Below are positions 9,800 through 49,632 of a stretch of DNA of 64,000 nt, piece by piece. The stretch spans positions 98,518,001-98,582,000 of the forward strand of contig OX597815.1 of NCBI GenBank assembly GCA_951406725.2, in the 5' to 3' direction. The notes beneath the pieces are model-generated. The model searched no databases and was not told the origin of the DNA. It was given only the letters and a program-made list of their open reading frames with translations. This DNA is from Octopus vulgaris (taxonomy: Eukaryota). Both the position numbers and the translations under genes were made by a program. Position 1 is the stretch's first letter. Every line of letters begins with the position of its first letter.

Positions 9800-11140
<1,341 letters not shown>

Positions 11141-11424
11141 CAACAATTGAGGGTAAAATTAATTAGTTATTAATCAATTTCACCAAGTAGTGTTCAGTAT
11201 GTAAAAGGACCGTTTAAGGCGAATTCAAAATATTACATTATATAATTAGGGCTTAGTAAAATAAATTACTTTGCCACATACTGAACTTTCTAGAAATAGC
11301 AGCCAAAACGTTTTTAGCCATTTCCACTACTTTAAGAAAACTTCTCTCAGATAATGTTTGCTCAAAGATAACTCACGAAGATATGGAGGTAAAAACAGTA
11401 AAATATCACAAGTACAAAGATCAT

Positions 11425-11487
11425 TTGAGAACGTCAACGTTTCTAGATTAGCCGAAATAAAACTCAGCATTTCTTTCGTCTGCTCAA
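11425..11487 (-). ncRNA. Type I hammerhead ribozyme, core-mutated copy (CAGACGA)
   Basis: Mirror image of 11985-12047 except at 11481, which changes CUGACGA to CAGACGA. Confidence 0.7.
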
Positions 11488-11984
11488 CATTTCTTAATTT
11501 TGGATTTGAAAGCACTAAAATAATGAACATACCCGTCCAATGATGTATCACCTCAGACAAACATCTTCAAACTGCCAGTACTAGCAAATTCAAAATGTAC
11601 AAGCGAAGATTCATGTTCCTTCCCCTTCCACCCACGTGAGTTATCTAGTAAACATATTTTAACGGTAAGCACCGTAGCAAAGAACAGAGAGAAGGGAATT
11701 ATAATATCAACAATTGAGGGTAAAATTAATTAGTTATTAATCAATTTCACCAAGTAGTGTTCAGTATGTAAAAGGACCATTTAAGGCGAATTCAAAATAT
11801 TACATTATATAATTAGGGCTTAGTAAAATAAATTACTTTGCCACATACTGAACTCTCTAGAAATAGCAGCCAAAACGTTTTTAGCCATTAGTACTGGCAG
11901 TTTGAAGATGTTTGTCTGAGGTGATACATCATTGGACGGGTATGTTCATTATTTTAGTGCTTTCAAATCCAAAATTAAGAAATG

Positions 11985-12047
11985 TTGAGCTGACGAAAGA
12001 AATGCTGAGTTTTATTTCGGCTAATCTAGAAACGTTGACGTTCTCAA
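11985..12047 (+). ncRNA. Type I hammerhead ribozyme
   Basis: Helix I TTGAG/CTCAA; CTGACGA 11990-11996; helix II AGA/TCT with a distal GCTGAG/TTCGGC stem; GAAA 12029-12032; helix III ACG-TTGA-CGT; GUU cleavage after 12042. Pair 10.1-11.1 is an A.A mismatch. Confidence 0.8.
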
Positions 12048-12283
12048 ATGATCTTTGTACTTGTGATATTTTACTGTTTTTACCTCCATATCTTCGTGAG
12101 TTATCTTTGAGCAAACATTATCTGAGAGAAGTTTTCTTAAAGTAGTGGAAATGGCTAAAAACGTTTTGGCTGCTATTTCTAGAAAGTTCAGTATGTGGCA
12201 AAGTAATTTATTTTACTAAGCCCTAATTATATAATATACATATATATATATATATACATATATAATAATATATATGTATATAC

Positions 12284-12682: not shown

Positions 12683-12805
12683 GTTGGCTTCCGAAGCACA
12701 TGGTTCGCGGCACACAGGTCAAACGTCTTGTACAAAGTCCTCACGCCGACCAAAGACTTGTGAATGAATTTGGTAGACGGAACTTGAAAGAAGCACTTCG
12801 TATAG
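12683..12805 (+). mobile_element. Degraded SINE (family C, my label)
   Basis: GCCGACCAAAGACTTGTGAATGAATTTGGTAGACGGAAC...AAAGAAGC tail shared with 22310-22460, 27015-27170, 54678-54830. Confidence 0.7.
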
Positions 12806-12850
12806 TATAGTAGAGTATAGTATAGTATAGTTTAATATAGTATAGTGTAC

Positions 12851-12956: not shown

Positions 12957-13470
12957 CAATAATAAAAGGGTAAAATTAATTAATTATTAATTTATAATTT
13001 TACCAAGTAGTGTTCAGTATGTAAAAAGACCATTTACGGTATATTTAAAACATTACGTTATACAATTAGGGTTCAGTGAAAAAATTTACTTCATCACACA
13101 CCGAACTTTTCGAAATAGCAGCCAAAAGATTTAGCTATTTCCTCTACTATAAGAAAAGTCTCCCAGACAATGTATACTCAAAAATAAATCACGCAAGTAT
13201 AGAGGGAAAAATAACGAAAGATCACACGTACATCGATTACTTGAGAACGCCGTTTCTGGATTAGTTAGATATAGAGATGCTAGAAATACATACTCCTATC
13301 AACATTTCCATCATCAGCCCAAGATTTCGTTAGGTTTAAATTTGAGAGCACTAAAAATCGAACATACCCGTCTGATATGAGTAATCCCAGACAAATCATC
13401 TTCGACCGCCAGTACTAACGAATTCAAAAAAGTACGAATGAGGCTTTGTATCCTTCCCCATCCACCTATG
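12957..13470 (-). mobile_element. Diverged copy of the 567-bp HHR element
   Basis: Colinear similarity to 11141-11635 (GGGTAAAATTAATTA, ACCAAGTAGTGTTCAGTATGTAAAA, GAAATAGCAGCCAAAA, AACATACCCGTC, GCCAGTACTA); same boundary against (TA)n. Confidence 0.85.
13240..13323 (-). ncRNA. Type I hammerhead ribozyme, intact core
   Basis: Minus strand: CTTGGG-CTGATGA-TGGA...TCCA-GAAAC-GGC-GTT-CTCAAG; helix I 6 bp, helix II TGGA/TCCA, GUU site. Confidence 0.8.
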
Positions 13471-13855: not shown

Positions 13856-13975
13856 GAGCTTCCCAGCCACATGGTTACCGCTCAGGTAAAATGTATTCTA
13901 CTAAATCCTCACGCCGACTAAAGTCTTGTGAATGAAATTGATACGTGGAAACTGGAATAAGCACTTCGTATAGTG
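13856..13975 (+). mobile_element. Degraded SINE (family C)
   Basis: Shares CCTCACGCCGAC and AAGCACTTCGTATAGT with 12683-12805. Confidence 0.65.
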
Positions 13976-14094
<119 letters not shown>

Positions 14095-14166
14095 ATATAT
14101 ATATACACTATACGATGTGCTTATTAAATAAAGTATATATATATATATATATATGAGGTGATTAAT

Positions 14167-14358
14167 ATCAAAATCAGCAACAAGGATATCCATAGGTAAT
14201 GCAGCACGATCGTTTCATGTGACTTCCTTTAATTGAACAATGCAATCATTTCACATTTTAAATTGATGTAATGAAAGGATTGCATTGTTCAATTAAATGG
14301 AGTCGCATGAAATCATCGTACTGCCTTACCTCTGGATGTCCTGGTTGCTTACTTTGAT
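14167..14358. repeat. Imperfect ~190-bp palindrome
   Basis: 14167-14253 is the reverse complement of 14272-14358 with scattered substitutions; (TA)n on both sides. Confidence 0.85.
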
Positions 14359-14855: not shown

Positions 14856-14899
<44 letters not shown>

Positions 14900-14902
<3 letters not shown>

Positions 14903-16865
14903 TGTTAAGAAAAGAAAATATAAAATACACGTGGAAATGTAAGGCTAACATTTGAAAACTCAATGAAATTGCACATTGCAAATAAAAAAAAGGCTATTTA
15001 TGACAGGTAACAACAAATATATACATTTAGATTGACTGAGGTAGTAATACGAGTCATAAAAGTCATTATTATGAAATGGTTATAAGATAATAATAAAGTA
15101 AGAGAACAAAATGGACCATGGTTCACGCAAAGCTATTCATTGTTTGAACAACACCGGTTAATACACGATGTCAAGTCTAATAGTTCCTGAGAAAAAAGAT
15201 TATTTGTAAGGGAGGTAAGTAGTTCTGGATTTAGAGATGTGAGTAGTGAAGGAAGTATATAGAGGTTAGTGGTTTTAATTGAAGAGTTAGTGGTGTTCTG
15301 TATTGAGTTGTGTGTTCATGTTTAGTTGGGGCAGAAATTTATTGATGAAAAATGCCTCTTTATTCAACCTTTGTTGCATTGTGTTGTTCTGTGAACATTG
15401 GTAAAAGGGAAATATTTGGAAATTGGGGTTAAGATTCCTGGCACATCTTTCTATATGTTCACTCACCTTTAACTGTCTGTATTGTGGGTGACGGATTTGC
15501 TCTTTGTGAATGGTGATTCTTTGACGGAGCGAAATTCCTGTTTGTCCAATATAGAGTTTACAGCATCCTATGCATGTCATGACATAGATTACATTTACTG
15601 AGGCGCAGGTGAAATTTGATTTGATCTTAAATATTTCTCCTTGTTTGAATTGGAATTCTGAACCCTCCAGAAGGTGGGGGCATGTTCCACAGTTAGAACG
15701 TCCACATTTTGTCACTTTTAGCTCTGTTGTTGGTGGATACAGTCTAGCGCTGGTTAATATTTTTTTCAGTGACTTCGGTTGCTTTTTGCTTTTTATAATT
15801 TTATATAAGTTTAAAATTTCGTTCATTGTTTTGTCTGTTGTGAGGATGGGAAGGTTTTAGGTGATGATGTTGAAGGTTATGTGTGGAAATGTACGGGAGT
15901 ATTTTTAAGTCTTGTTTAGTATTTCGGCTAGTTTTCCTTAACCTCTGTATCTCTATTTCCTTAGCTCTTTTAATACCTTCATTTACTAATGAGATTGGGT
16001 AATGTCTTTTAGTTAGTGTAGATCTAAGTTCAAGAAGTCTATGTTCTCGAGTGTATGTATCGGAAACTATGGTGCAGATTCTTTGTGCTAGGTAAAAGGG
16101 TATGTTGATTTTTATGTGTTTGGGGTGACAGGAGTTAAGTAATAGGTATTGTTTAGAATCTGTAGGTTTATAAAAGATGTCTGTTTCTATGTGGTTGTTA
16201 ACTATTCTAATTAAGATGTCTTGAAAAGGGAGTTGCTTACTGTTGTGTTCCATAGTGAATTGTATTTTGCTGTGTATGTTGTTGAGCATTCTTTTGAAGT
16301 CAAGGAGTTGATCCATGATGTCTTTCCAAAGTATGAAGCAATCATCTAAATATCTCTTCCAGTTCTCCTTTAAGTAGCAATTAAAAGAGGCGCCATATTT
16401 TTCTAGTGATGATTGGTATAACTTAAGTTCGTGGTAACCCATTACGAGGTTTACAATCACTGGAGCAGCTCTGGTCCCCATTGCAATTCCGCACTCTGTC
16501 GATAGTAAGTAGTATCGAACAAGAAATGATTGTTCAACAGGACGAATTTCAGTGCTTCAATTATAAAATTGTGGCTAATTCGTCCTGGAATCTCTTCTGG
16601 GTATTTTTCTAGCCAAAATGTGATTGCTTCTATACCATAGTCGTGTGGGATATTAGTGTGTAGATTCACCACATCGAAAGATACCAGTAGTGTTCCGTCC
16701 ATTACTGTCTTCGGGAGGTGGTTCAGCATGTCTAGGTCATCCTTGATATAGCTTTTCACATATTATAAAAGAGGTTTGAGTAATATGTCGAGGAAGTTAC
16801 TCAAACAGTGGGTTTCGCAAGCAGGGCCAGCTATGATGGGTCTGAGTTTGAAGTCAGACATATTC
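14900..16865 (-). mobile_element. Penelope-like retroelement (RT + GIY-YIG endonuclease), 5'-truncated, frameshifted; Neptune-like
   Basis: LRPIIAG, SFDVVNLHTNIP, MGTRAAP, RYLDD, DIFYKPTD, linker CGRSNCGTC, NVIYVMTCIGCCKLYIGQT (GIY-YIG); split across ORFs 16457-16759, 15801-16481, 15287-15826, plus an in-frame TAA near 16764. The 3' limit (14900) is approximate. Confidence 0.95.
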
Positions 16866-16899
16866 GTAAACATCAAGGTTCGCCCGTGTTGGTAGAAGA

Positions 16900-17012
16900 A
16901 TGGGGCCTATAGAATATATACGGGGAAATGTTTGATCGACAAAAGCCCTTCAATGCGTTGCTCAGCATGGCCGCTATCAAATGACTGAAACAGGTAAAAG
17001 ATAAAACAAGAA
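16900..17012 (+). mobile_element. SINE 3' fragment (family B)
   Basis: CAGCATGGCCGCTATCAAATGACTGAAACAGGTAAAAGATAAAA. Confidence 0.7.
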
Positions 17013-17069
<57 letters not shown>

Positions 17070-24932: not shown

Positions 24933-26540
24933 GCTATTGTGAATCTATATCACTATTCAACAAGGCCAAAGATAATCATTGTTGGTCTTTACAGGCCTCC
25001 CCAAGCACCTCTAAAGTGCTTTGAAGAGTGCCTAAAAAAAAAACGAGTCCTTCTTTCAAAAATACAACTCCGGAAACATACTAGTGATGGGGGATTGTAA
25101 CCTCCCTCATATAAACAGGCCCACAAATACTCTGAAGTTAGGCATATGCTCTACATCAGATAAAGCAGCAGCAGAATTACTCTTTAATCTAATGGATAAA
25201 TTCTTCTTGACTCAGCTAGTGCTCGAACCAGCAAGACAGAATAAAACGATCTTGGATAGCTGGCTTTCTGGAGACTCACAAACTCTTAAATGCAAATCAG
25301 CATGGCTTTCACTGTGGCTGGGAGTGTATAACAGAGCTCTTACACCAAATTGAAGATATACTTAAAGCTTTGGGAACAGGTTCGAAATATGATGTCATAT
25401 ATCTTGACTTCAGTAAAGCGTTCGACAGGGTTGAACATAATATCTTACTCTCAAAATTGGCGAATGTTGGAATCCGTCGAAAACTTCTACACTGGATTAA
25501 GTATTTCCTGGCGAATAGAACACAACATGTTGTAGTCGATGGAGTCCACTCAAGCCCAGAAAAAATCACCAGTGGTGTCCCTCAGGGCCCGCTCCTCTTT
25601 ATTATTTACATAAATGAACTTTCCAGCGTCGTAAATCGCTGCAAAGTGAAAATATTTGCTGATGACATTAAGCTCCAGCAAATCATCAATAAAGAAGAAG
25701 ACCGAACTCAACTCCAGTCTGATCTATATGATGTGAGTCAATGGGCAGACAAAAACAAAATGCAACTGAACGACGGAAAATTTGAGCTGATTCATTTTGG
25801 AAAAAAGTCTATACTAAAACAGCTATAATCTCTTATTTCAGGGAAACCGATCACAGCATCTAACAATATCAGAGACCTGGGTGTAATTGTTGATAATAAT
25901 CTCAGTTGGTGTGCCCACATCAACAATAAGGTCGATATAGCTCGTAGGATGAGCTCCTGGATCTTAAGAACCTTCTGGTGTCATCAGAGAACAAGGTGTC
26001 ATCACTCCACTTTTCTCCTCCTTTGTACGGCCCCACCTCGAATGCTGCTGCCCTCGTGGTCTCCCCGTACAAAAGAAAACATCTCGAGGCTATTTAGTAA
26101 GTGCCAAAGGGCACTCACTAAACGAATTGAAGGCATGACTGATCTCGATTATTGGGACCGCCTTAGAGCCTTGAAATTATATTCTCTCCGGCGCCGCCGC
26201 GAGCGGTACATCATTTGTACGATGTGGAGAATATACCGCAAGCATTGCCCAAACGACCTGAACATTAGTTTCAACGTTCATCCAAGGCTGGGACCACAGG
26301 CCATACTTCCCCTGCCCAATTCAGGATCACAGCACATAGGTACACTGCGAAATATTTTCAACAGACCCTGCCCTGTTTAACATTGTCCCGAAAGAGATCA
26401 AAGAGGAAAAGGATTCCACCACCTTTAAACGGAGCCTGGACAGATTTCTTCAAGGAATACCGGATACGCCACCCATACCTGGATTCAACTCACTTAACAA
26501 GAACTCACTACTTGAATGGATCATAAAAAACTTGACTTAA
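24933..26540 (+). mobile_element. CR1/L2-group LINE, internally deleted ORF2 remnant
   Basis: APE motifs IIVGLYRPP and MGDCNLPHI; RT motifs YLDFSKAFDRV, SGVPQG, FADDIKL, RDLGVIVD; C-terminal LRRRRERY; EN joins RT directly near 25260. Confidence 0.92.
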
Positions 26541-48234: not shown

Positions 48235-49632
48235 AGCTTAATTCAAGATTTCTTTCCAATAGAAAAAAAAAACAGTTTCTAACGTAGACCCAAATCAACT
48301 TCATTGGAATTTCAATATCAACAAACGGGTATTTTTGTTTGCATATATATATATGTAAGTATGTATGTAAGTATGTATGTATGTATGTATGTATGTATGT
48401 ATGTATGTATGTATGTATGTATGTATGTATGTATGTATGTATGCATGCATGCATGCATGCATGTATGTATGCATGTATGTATGTCTGGATGGATGGATGG
48501 ATGGATGTATGTATGTGCAGGTTTGTATGTTTTATGTATATATTTCAATGCATATAGTTGCATATCCAGAATGCTCATATATATTTAAATGATAAACTTC
48601 TGGAAAATTTTACAGATGTTTACAGTTCCATTCGAATTAGGTTTTTCATTCTTGGTTTTGAGAAGCTTAATTTCTCTAGACTAGTATTTAGGCAGGGCCC
48701 CAATAATTACAGGTATAAACCTGAACTTGTAATCTGGATATAGTAGCTGCAGATTTCTCAATAGATCGGCATAGGTGTTTTCTTTTTCACTGATCTTCAG
48801 CTTTATGTTAACATCCGCTGGGCAGCTAATTTCCACAACTGTACACAGTTTCTCTTCTCTATCTCAATCATTATATCAGGTCTGTTGTGCTTACATTTTA
48901 TTCAGGTCTTCACTGGGACATTCCACCAGTATTCCTTTTTATTATGAGTGGCTGTGTCTTCTACCATATTGTGGGTTCTTATTTCTTTGTCCTCGAGATT
49001 ATCGTTCCGACGGATTTCATTATAGAGTGTCCTAGCTACAACATTATGTCTCAGCAGTAGATAATACCGTGATGATATTTTCGGACAAATGCTTATGATG
49101 TGGGTAATATCTTCAGTGTGAACTCCAGAAAGTCTGCATCGGTTGTCCCATTTTACTGCATTTCCTGCATCCCTGTACCTTTTGTGCATCAGGTAATTGG
49201 TTGATATTTCCTGTTCCTGGATTGGAAACGCATTCCCTTCAAAGTGGGAGGTAGTAATCCTGCTATTCGTCTGTGATAAACTGCTTTGATGATCGATGTA
49301 ACTATTATCACGGAGCTTTCCACTAAAATATCTATGCATAGTCTTCTGCTCATATAGGCTCAGCCTTTCATCTGACGATACGTTGCGGTAGAGTCGTGCA
49401 ACCTCTTTGGGCCTGTATTCTAGGTTATCAGGCAAACATTTTGCTCAAGGAGCTGCCTTCCAAGTTATCAGCCTCATGAATGCAAACTTGGTCAAGGGAT
49501 GCATTTCGACACTTGGTGGTTAAAGATGTTGCCGAAGAGATATGATGTGGCATTCAAAGGCATTTTGGATCGATCTTAAGCCTCTGCCGCTGCCTTGTTT
49601 TCGTTTTAGGTAGGAGCGGTCTACGTCATTTC
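48235..49632 (-). mobile_element. R4/Dong-clade LINE, C-terminal half (CCHC + restriction-like endonuclease) and 3' UTR
   Basis: DVDRSYLKRKQGSGRGL, IQEQEIST, CRLSG..EDITHIISIC, HNRPDI..VVEISCP..K, stop near 48586, then UTR containing (TACA)n. Confidence 0.92.

Follow-up and report, generated by a model that had tools for sequence, protein, structure and literature searches.

Insertions of EN+ PLEs combine a partial tandem with an inverted copy, carry a one-sided tail and are biased towards (TA)n (PMC8557442), and the way in which PLEs build such tandem and inverted insertions has been named as an open problem (PMC8557442). For the Anolis element Poseidon PAc, an in vitro system has been described with two internal start sites for reverse transcription, cutting and extension of both target strands, insertion independent of ribozyme cleavage and a predicted dimer (Frangieh et al. 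2024, PMC11167929), all of which have a counterpart in the reading proposed below. Non-coding parasites of PLEs that form pLTRs and head-to-tail copies are known among the Chlamys non-autonomous elements, e.g. MRC1 (PMC8557442). Animal non-LTR retrozymes are non-coding, low-GC units with a type I hammerhead, arranged in head-to-tail copies and present at many monomer-type loci, with a proposed dependence on PLEs (PMC7229834; bioRxiv 10.64898/2026.07.22.740005). The link between retrozymes and PLEs is in print for vertebrates (bioRxiv 10.64898/2026.07.22.740005; also PMC7229834), where the evidence that PLEs mobilise animal retrozymes consists of co-occurrence and pLTR phylogeny (Li et al. 2026, bioRxiv 10.64898/2026.07.22.740005). 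The octopus family described here resembles retrozymes in each of these traits, and its 567-nt unit falls within the range of 51-972 bp given by Li et al. 2026 (bioRxiv 10.64898/2026.07.22.740005).

The window, a stretch of 64,000 nucleotides of Octopus vulgaris DNA, holds at 11141-12238 what is probably a young insertion of a dispersed, non-coding hammerhead repeat, copied in trans by the RT/GIY-YIG protein of an autonomous, TA-targeting (Neptune/Nematis-type) PLE. A sequence-only reading had already proposed a non-coding hammerhead retroelement with PLE insertion hallmarks; that proposal is upheld, mobilisation in trans being very likely. As far as its sequence tells, the element is a non-autonomous PLE-type hammerhead element, or animal retrozyme, a class already known. 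The features of the locus and its surroundings are as follows.

11097..11140, no strand: left (TA)n-rich target flank.
11141..11707, minus strand (the sense of the unit): full 567-nt unit, its 3′ end (unit nt 567) abutting (TA)n at 11140.
11152..11184, minus strand, second copy at 11719-11751: conserved 14-bp hairpin between both end sites, predicted by folding against shuffles.
11417..11495, minus strand: hammerhead of the full unit with core CAGACGA; U4-to-A change at 11481, private to this copy.
11708..11889, minus strand: 5′-truncated second unit (nt 386-567), a head-to-tail partial tandem without a hammerhead; 2 mismatches in 182 bp.
11889..12238, plus strand: inverted arm that spans unit nt 125 to ~478 and is joined head-to-head via a 1-nt overlap; its 3′ end, at the second of the fixed end sites, abuts (TA)n.
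11977..12055, plus strand: type I hammerhead with intact core (CUGACGA 11990-11996, GAAA 12029-12032); predicted cleavage after 12042.
12239..12282, no strand: right (TA)n-rich target flank.
12957..13470, minus strand: an older sister subfamily, 75% identical, inserted separately; its own hammerhead has the core at 13317, with cleavage predicted after 13246.
14897..17014, minus strand: frameshifted, 5′-truncated RT + GIY-YIG PLE that sits in (TA)n of its own, outside the element.

Read on the minus strand, the insertion runs through unit nt 386-567 and then nt 1-567, head-to-head to plus-strand nt 125 to ~478, with both 3′ ends pointing outwards. The 567-bp unit and its 182-bp direct repeat are as first described, while the inverted arm, put at 347 bp, is 350 bp ungapped: 11889-12238 mirrors 11234-11583 with 2 mismatches, one of them inside the AT-rich end. 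The repeat parts of the locus are 99% alike, and the picture of near-identical repeats set in (TA)n holds, with 2 mismatches per arm and TA-rich sequence at both flanks. The type of head-to-tail junction at 11707/11708 is found 240 times exactly in the genome (reversed control, 0). The unit has a GC content of 33% and a longest ATG-started ORF of 67 aa, in keeping with the claim that it is non-coding, and that of 11141-11707 is 97.9% identical to its nearest copy. Hallmarks of EN+ PLEs are present, namely a partial tandem and an inverted 5′-truncated copy, a one-sided tail and a (TA)n target as in Neptune-type elements; any target-site duplication would be indistinguishable from the (TA)n itself.

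The hammerhead had been placed in the full unit as a complete type I ribozyme; there, the core reads CAGACGA, and loss of U4 is taken by us to inactivate a hammerhead, which makes this one likely inactive. Among family segments the loss is confined to the full unit of the window (1 of 123), U4 being retained in the other 122. A type I hammerhead with a 3-bp helix III, an extended helix II and a cleavage site predicted after 12042 does exist as described, in the inverted arm, where helix III is closed by a UUGA loop. Since the core of the full unit is mutated and the 182-bp repeat has no hammerhead, it is the inverted arm, on the opposite strand, that has the sole intact core. The locus therefore has a mutated core on the minus strand, an intact one on the plus strand and no two ribozymes on the same strand, so that the predicted release of a 567-nt monomer or circle cannot take place from it. 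The copy in the window is probably an inert dead end, because one of its cores carries a mutation and, in a transcript reading through the locus, the other would base-pair with its mirror image.

At the level of the family, the predicted ribozyme is conserved. The descriptor used matched only 3 of 20,000 shuffles of the inverted arm, helix I, made up of 5 bp and a further 4 bp distally, is conserved, and helix II shows compensatory changes among subfamilies (AGA/UCU, GGA/UCC and AGG/CCC). An A-A mismatch next to the core opens helix II in 123/124 and 128/130 copies; across 76 matched motifs, openings of this N-A type are A-A (53), C-A (18), G-A (3), U-A (1) and A-C (1), and the axolotl HHR_Amex2 provides a precedent for a mismatch at the base of helix II (PMC7229834; bioRxiv 10.64898/2026.07.22.740005). 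An Rfam scan gave no match for the hammerhead at gathering thresholds, and the isolated hammerhead folds no better than shuffles (z -0.26). Helix III and its loop are self-complementary in the hammerhead of the arm, a design described for PLE and retrozyme hammerheads that act as dimers (PMC4209133, PMC7229834); among predicted dimers of Xenopus, eight of nine are given as without cleavage (Li et al., bioRxiv 10.64898/2026.07.22.740005).

The 567-nt family is dispersed through the genome, which has 2.8 Gb in 227 contigs. A first look gave 2,510 candidates, 40 of which were scored, and the subfamily of the sister insertion at 12957-13470 gave 3,384. Exact genome matches number 116 for a 23-mer of the ribozyme and 569 for a 23-mer near the 3′ end that is common to an older subfamily, with none for the reversed control in either case. 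The 97 young-family loci analysed comprise the 30 best matches and 67 drawn from the first 100 matches to the ribozyme; they take in the window itself, five loci picked as dimers, two picked as inverted pairs and L160, a probable assembly duplicate. L160 and L074 show the same insertion end twice, ~31 kb apart and once beside an N gap. Back-to-back insertions make up 63 of the 97 loci, and the 34 scored as single orientation include several whose second arm is shorter than BLAST can pick up. Arms are up to 1,101 nt long. Same-strand ribozyme pairs, or dimers, number six among the first 100 of the 116 exact matches, and seven dimer loci were fetched, five of them chosen as such. The expectation that tandem arrays are the usual form is not supported: among the first 100 of the 240 junctions, no more than three follow one another. 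Assembled contigs from presumed RNA runs hold family variants across most of the unit, none spanning the locus, and are such that strand, ends and circles cannot be read from them. A ~2-kb tandem array at L171-L172 (G000:C9:96.03-96.05 Mb) has an old-subfamily insertion as a passenger of the amplification, present nine times. At L089 and L170 the 5′ end of the unit abuts what looks by eye like an outward-facing, tRNA-derived SINE-like sequence, either flank or a chimera with SINE RNA, and these two loci were left out of the count of chimeras. Recurrent differences between tandem copies at nt 398/399 were dismissed as alignment noise at a variable A/T homopolymer.

The outer ends of these insertions follow a strict rule. 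Among 160 ends, 79 lie at unit nt 567, 69 at nt 465-487 and 12 elsewhere; those at nt 567 sit on TA in 76 cases and those at nt 465-487 in 62, together 138 of 148. In the 63 back-to-back loci, 52 pair an end at 478 with one at 567, one pairs 478 with 478, none pairs 567 with 567 and 10 have one atypical end, so that nt 567 is paired with nt ~478 in 52 of the 53 classifiable loci (p 5e-15). The two end sites are 89 nt apart, both AU-rich in RNA, with the conserved 14-bp hairpin between them. The 110-nt end region that holds it folds with a z of -3.8, none of 200 shuffles being as stable, and the 136 copies of the hairpin fall into 27 variants, the commonest 14 of which all fold as hairpins; it is a candidate protein-binding or priming signal. 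The 5′ ends, for their part, are scattered along the unit, and most inversion junctions overlap by 0-5 nt. The predicted cleavage site (nt 278/279) is spanned by 131 of 227 segments and has 2 of 160 5′ ends nearby, on which ground the ribozyme cleavage site was rejected as an RT stop. Arms within a locus agree at 558 of 570 subfamily-diagnostic columns (48 arm pairs), the 12 discordant columns standing against 243 expected if arms were independent; part of this agreement could come from gene conversion, or from subfamilies whose periods of activity differed.

An RT + GIY-YIG PLE does lie nearby, as the sequence-only reading had it, 3.05 kb away and broken; as a linked partner it falls away, with no sequence shared with the unit, (TA)n flanks of its own and a greater age (95.4% identity to its nearest copy, where the unit has 97.9%), and it was rejected as the mobilising element. 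A decayed A3-U8 version of the hammerhead of this PLE can be made out at ~15100-15140 on the minus strand. Elsewhere in the window, 2-578 is a back-to-back fragment (EN on the minus strand, ORF start on the plus strand) of a PLE closely akin to the young autonomous one introduced below (86-90% amino-acid identity), and 14155-14358 is an old fold-back of ~200 bp, with 81% alike arms, of another hammerhead-bearing repeat, which is matched by 10 of 242 loci, two of them overlapping the window, and has an intact core in the copies at L049 and L069. Broken frames at 25220-26380 (plus strand) and 48902-49444 (minus strand) resemble, as judged by eye, remnants of a LINE reverse transcriptase and C terminus, and copies of a short repeat at 12715-12809 and 13883-13977, 81% alike and ending at (TA)n, are probably SINE 3′ ends.

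Better candidates for a helper come from elsewhere in the genome. The young autonomous PLE (L062) has an 811-aa ORF with an RT, a C-x4-C-x2-C linker and, at the C terminus, a motif of GIY-YIG type that was read by eye; the linker stands upstream of the GIY-YIG-type motif in this ORF and in the PLE of the window alike, and fits the CX2-5CxxC linker of Neptune/Nematis. A protein search found mainly mollusc-associated relatives, with no clade label among them. Insertions of the young PLE obey the same kind of rule as the unit: they stand back-to-back in (TA)n, and of 25 loci the 18 that could be scored (7 could not) all have one short end and one that is longer by 42 nt. In each of 19 comparisons their arms are closer to one another than to other copies at the median, and in only five are they closer than to the nearest copy. 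Upstream of the RT-EN frame of L062 and overlapping it, a 495-aa frame without a Pfam match (1125-2609) is possibly an ORF1 with a frameshift. Minimal hammerheads in which the 3-8 pair is swapped stand in the 3′ ends of autonomous PLEs (L062:4870-5240, L068, L110, L064 and L152), the pair being U3-A8 for the young family and A3-U8 for that of L068 and L110; a relaxed scan found them in 14 of 50 ends and in 0 of 2,000 shuffles; the U3-A8 variant is described in PMC4209133, whose passages on it do not mention A3-U8.

Two of the 97 loci join the unit to such a PLE. At L091, the young autonomous PLE contributes a 2.2-kb arm whose tailed end is on TA and which stands head-to-head with a unit arm ending at nt 567. 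At L127, a unit arm, again ending at nt 567, is head-to-head with the tailed 3′ end of a second ORF-bearing PLE family, PLE ORF sequence lying within 1.5 kb in 13 of 19 close relatives of that arm. In both, the outer ends are on TA, the junction has a microhomology of ~2 nt and the ages of the arms are matched by identity to nearest relatives (97.5/98.6% at L091, 98.9/97.2% at L127). That the unit gives its nt-567 end and the PLE its tailed end in both chimeras is as strict pairing predicts if nt 567 is the primary site of the unit. Looked for from the PLE side, no chimera with the unit was found in 25 loci of the young PLE or in 19 further loci of the second helper family.

We infer double nicking of (TA)n, priming at two sites, read-through of the unit boundary and joining by microhomology. 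A PLE enzyme, probably a dimer, would cut both strands of a (TA)n tract; one DNA end would prime cDNA synthesis at the AU-rich internal site at nt 567/1 and the other at the second AU-rich site at nt ~478. Both cDNAs would extend towards the 5′ end, across the unit boundary and the ribozyme site, stop at variable points and be joined head-to-head via 0-5 nt of microhomology. Both arms would usually come from the same RNA variant and, rarely, one would be the helper PLE's own RNA. The template would not be a linear, ribozyme-cut monomer, which the arm lengths exclude as the usual one; a circle released from the few dimer loci is slightly favoured over a linear multimer left uncut, because the tandem copies inside one arm resemble each other about as closely as the two arms do (median divergence 1.8% vs 1.5%) and, by our reasoning, repeated 5′ truncation would otherwise wear the tandems away. 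Against this reading, the unit has no detectable sequence in common with any PLE end tested by which a PLE protein might recognise it. More tentatively, PLE integration may involve two non-equivalent priming positions per complex that can be loaded with different RNAs, and the 567-nt retrozyme may perhaps be a generalist parasite of at least two TA-targeting PLE families with which it has no sequence in common.

Could the unit instead be the pLTR or 3′ end of an autonomous PLE outside the sample, and the loci its truncated cis products? All the insertion hallmarks are those of ordinary PLE ends (PMC8557442, PMC3846280), hammerheads of animal PLEs are mostly solitary truncated ends (PMC4209133), and the PLE protein candidates considered were the best 150 of 15,135. 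Nevertheless, of the 39 segments in the first 50 loci that reach the start of the unit (nt 1-5), 37 have the unit's own end before them and none has an ORF there, the other two being one shifted unit end and one internal deletion; no colinear ORF lies upstream of the unit in 157 loci (97 young, 30 old-subfamily and 30 tail-selected); the unit joins itself exactly 240 times; and BLAST found no match between it and 50 PLE 3′ ends from several families. The unit is thus not simply the pLTR of an ORF-bearing PLE, and an origin in cis is very unlikely. A satellite-type retrozyme, in which long arrays self-cleave into 567-nt monomers that are reverse-transcribed from their cut ends or spread locally, would account for the conserved hammerhead, its compensatory pairs, a self-complementary helix III suited to dimer cleavage and the existence of dimer loci. 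Against the runs that it calls for, the first 100 junctions listed reach at most three in a row, the ends are fixed at nt 567 and ~478 rather than at the cleavage site, where 5′ ends do not pile up, and the window locus lacks two same-strand cores; we regard such a cycle as highly improbable.

The inverted arm could also have arisen by fold-back self-priming or by copying of the first arm, as has been proposed for PLEs (PMC3846280), the chimeras then being later deletions between adjacent insertions. Arms within a locus do carry common subfamily variants, the first arm at the window locus wholly contains the inverted one, and TA tracts attract stacked insertions, a further copy lying next to the chimera at L091; each chimera, taken singly, could be a deletion between two neighbouring insertions. 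In many loci, however, neither arm contains the other (e.g. L082, L136, L146, L154 and L167), and in L158 they are disjoint, so one arm cannot be a copy of the other, and fold-back does not predict that 52 of 53 loci pair the same two ends. Fold-back is accordingly unlikely, and separate priming of two cDNAs by a PLE enzyme acting in trans is the reading retained here.

Set beside the known systems, the family bears the sequence characters of animal non-LTR retrozymes as a family, and not at the window locus. It differs from animal retrozymes in that most of its insertions are partial tandems set back-to-back in (TA)n and no long arrays were seen, and in its two physical chimeras with autonomous PLEs, and the ribozyme here is a prediction from the sequence; in Xenopus, 24 of 57 retrozyme families matched known elements, nearly all PLEs (bioRxiv 10.64898/2026.07.22.740005), whereas the octopus unit resembles no sampled pLTR. 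With EN+ PLE insertions it shares the architecture, the preference for (TA)n and the unlike ends on either side (Craig et al. 2021, PMC8557442; Arkhipova et al. 2013, PMC3846280); unlike them, it has no ORF and repeats on itself, and its end sites are 89 nt apart, compared with tails of 30-40 bp (PMC8557442; PMC3846280). The Chlamys elements generally have a 3′ end like that of the autonomous partner, and their group is mostly without canonical hammerheads (PMC8557442), while the octopus unit shows no 3′-end similarity to an autonomous PLE family among the 50 ends from several families. Poseidon PAc belongs to another clade and has AC-rich start sites without homology to the target, in contrast to the AU-rich sites of the octopus unit (PMC11167929); the portions of that report drawn on here contain no strict two-site pairing or mixed templates (PMC11167929). 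The literature searched holds no report of the 567-nt family, of a cephalopod equivalent, or of retrozyme-PLE chimeras or twin priming, and Repbase, Dfam and bioRxiv supplements may hold the family.

For the study of PLE integration, the octopus family offers a small template of 567 nt with two mapped end sites and a strict end-pairing rule common to the young autonomous PLE. Two chimeric loci name candidate helper families, and the RT-EN ORF of the young helper is open. Mobilisation in trans and two-site priming are testable in the published in vitro format of the Anolis element. If the two-template reading of the chimeras is true, they would be direct physical evidence of the enzymes that mobilise an animal retrozyme.
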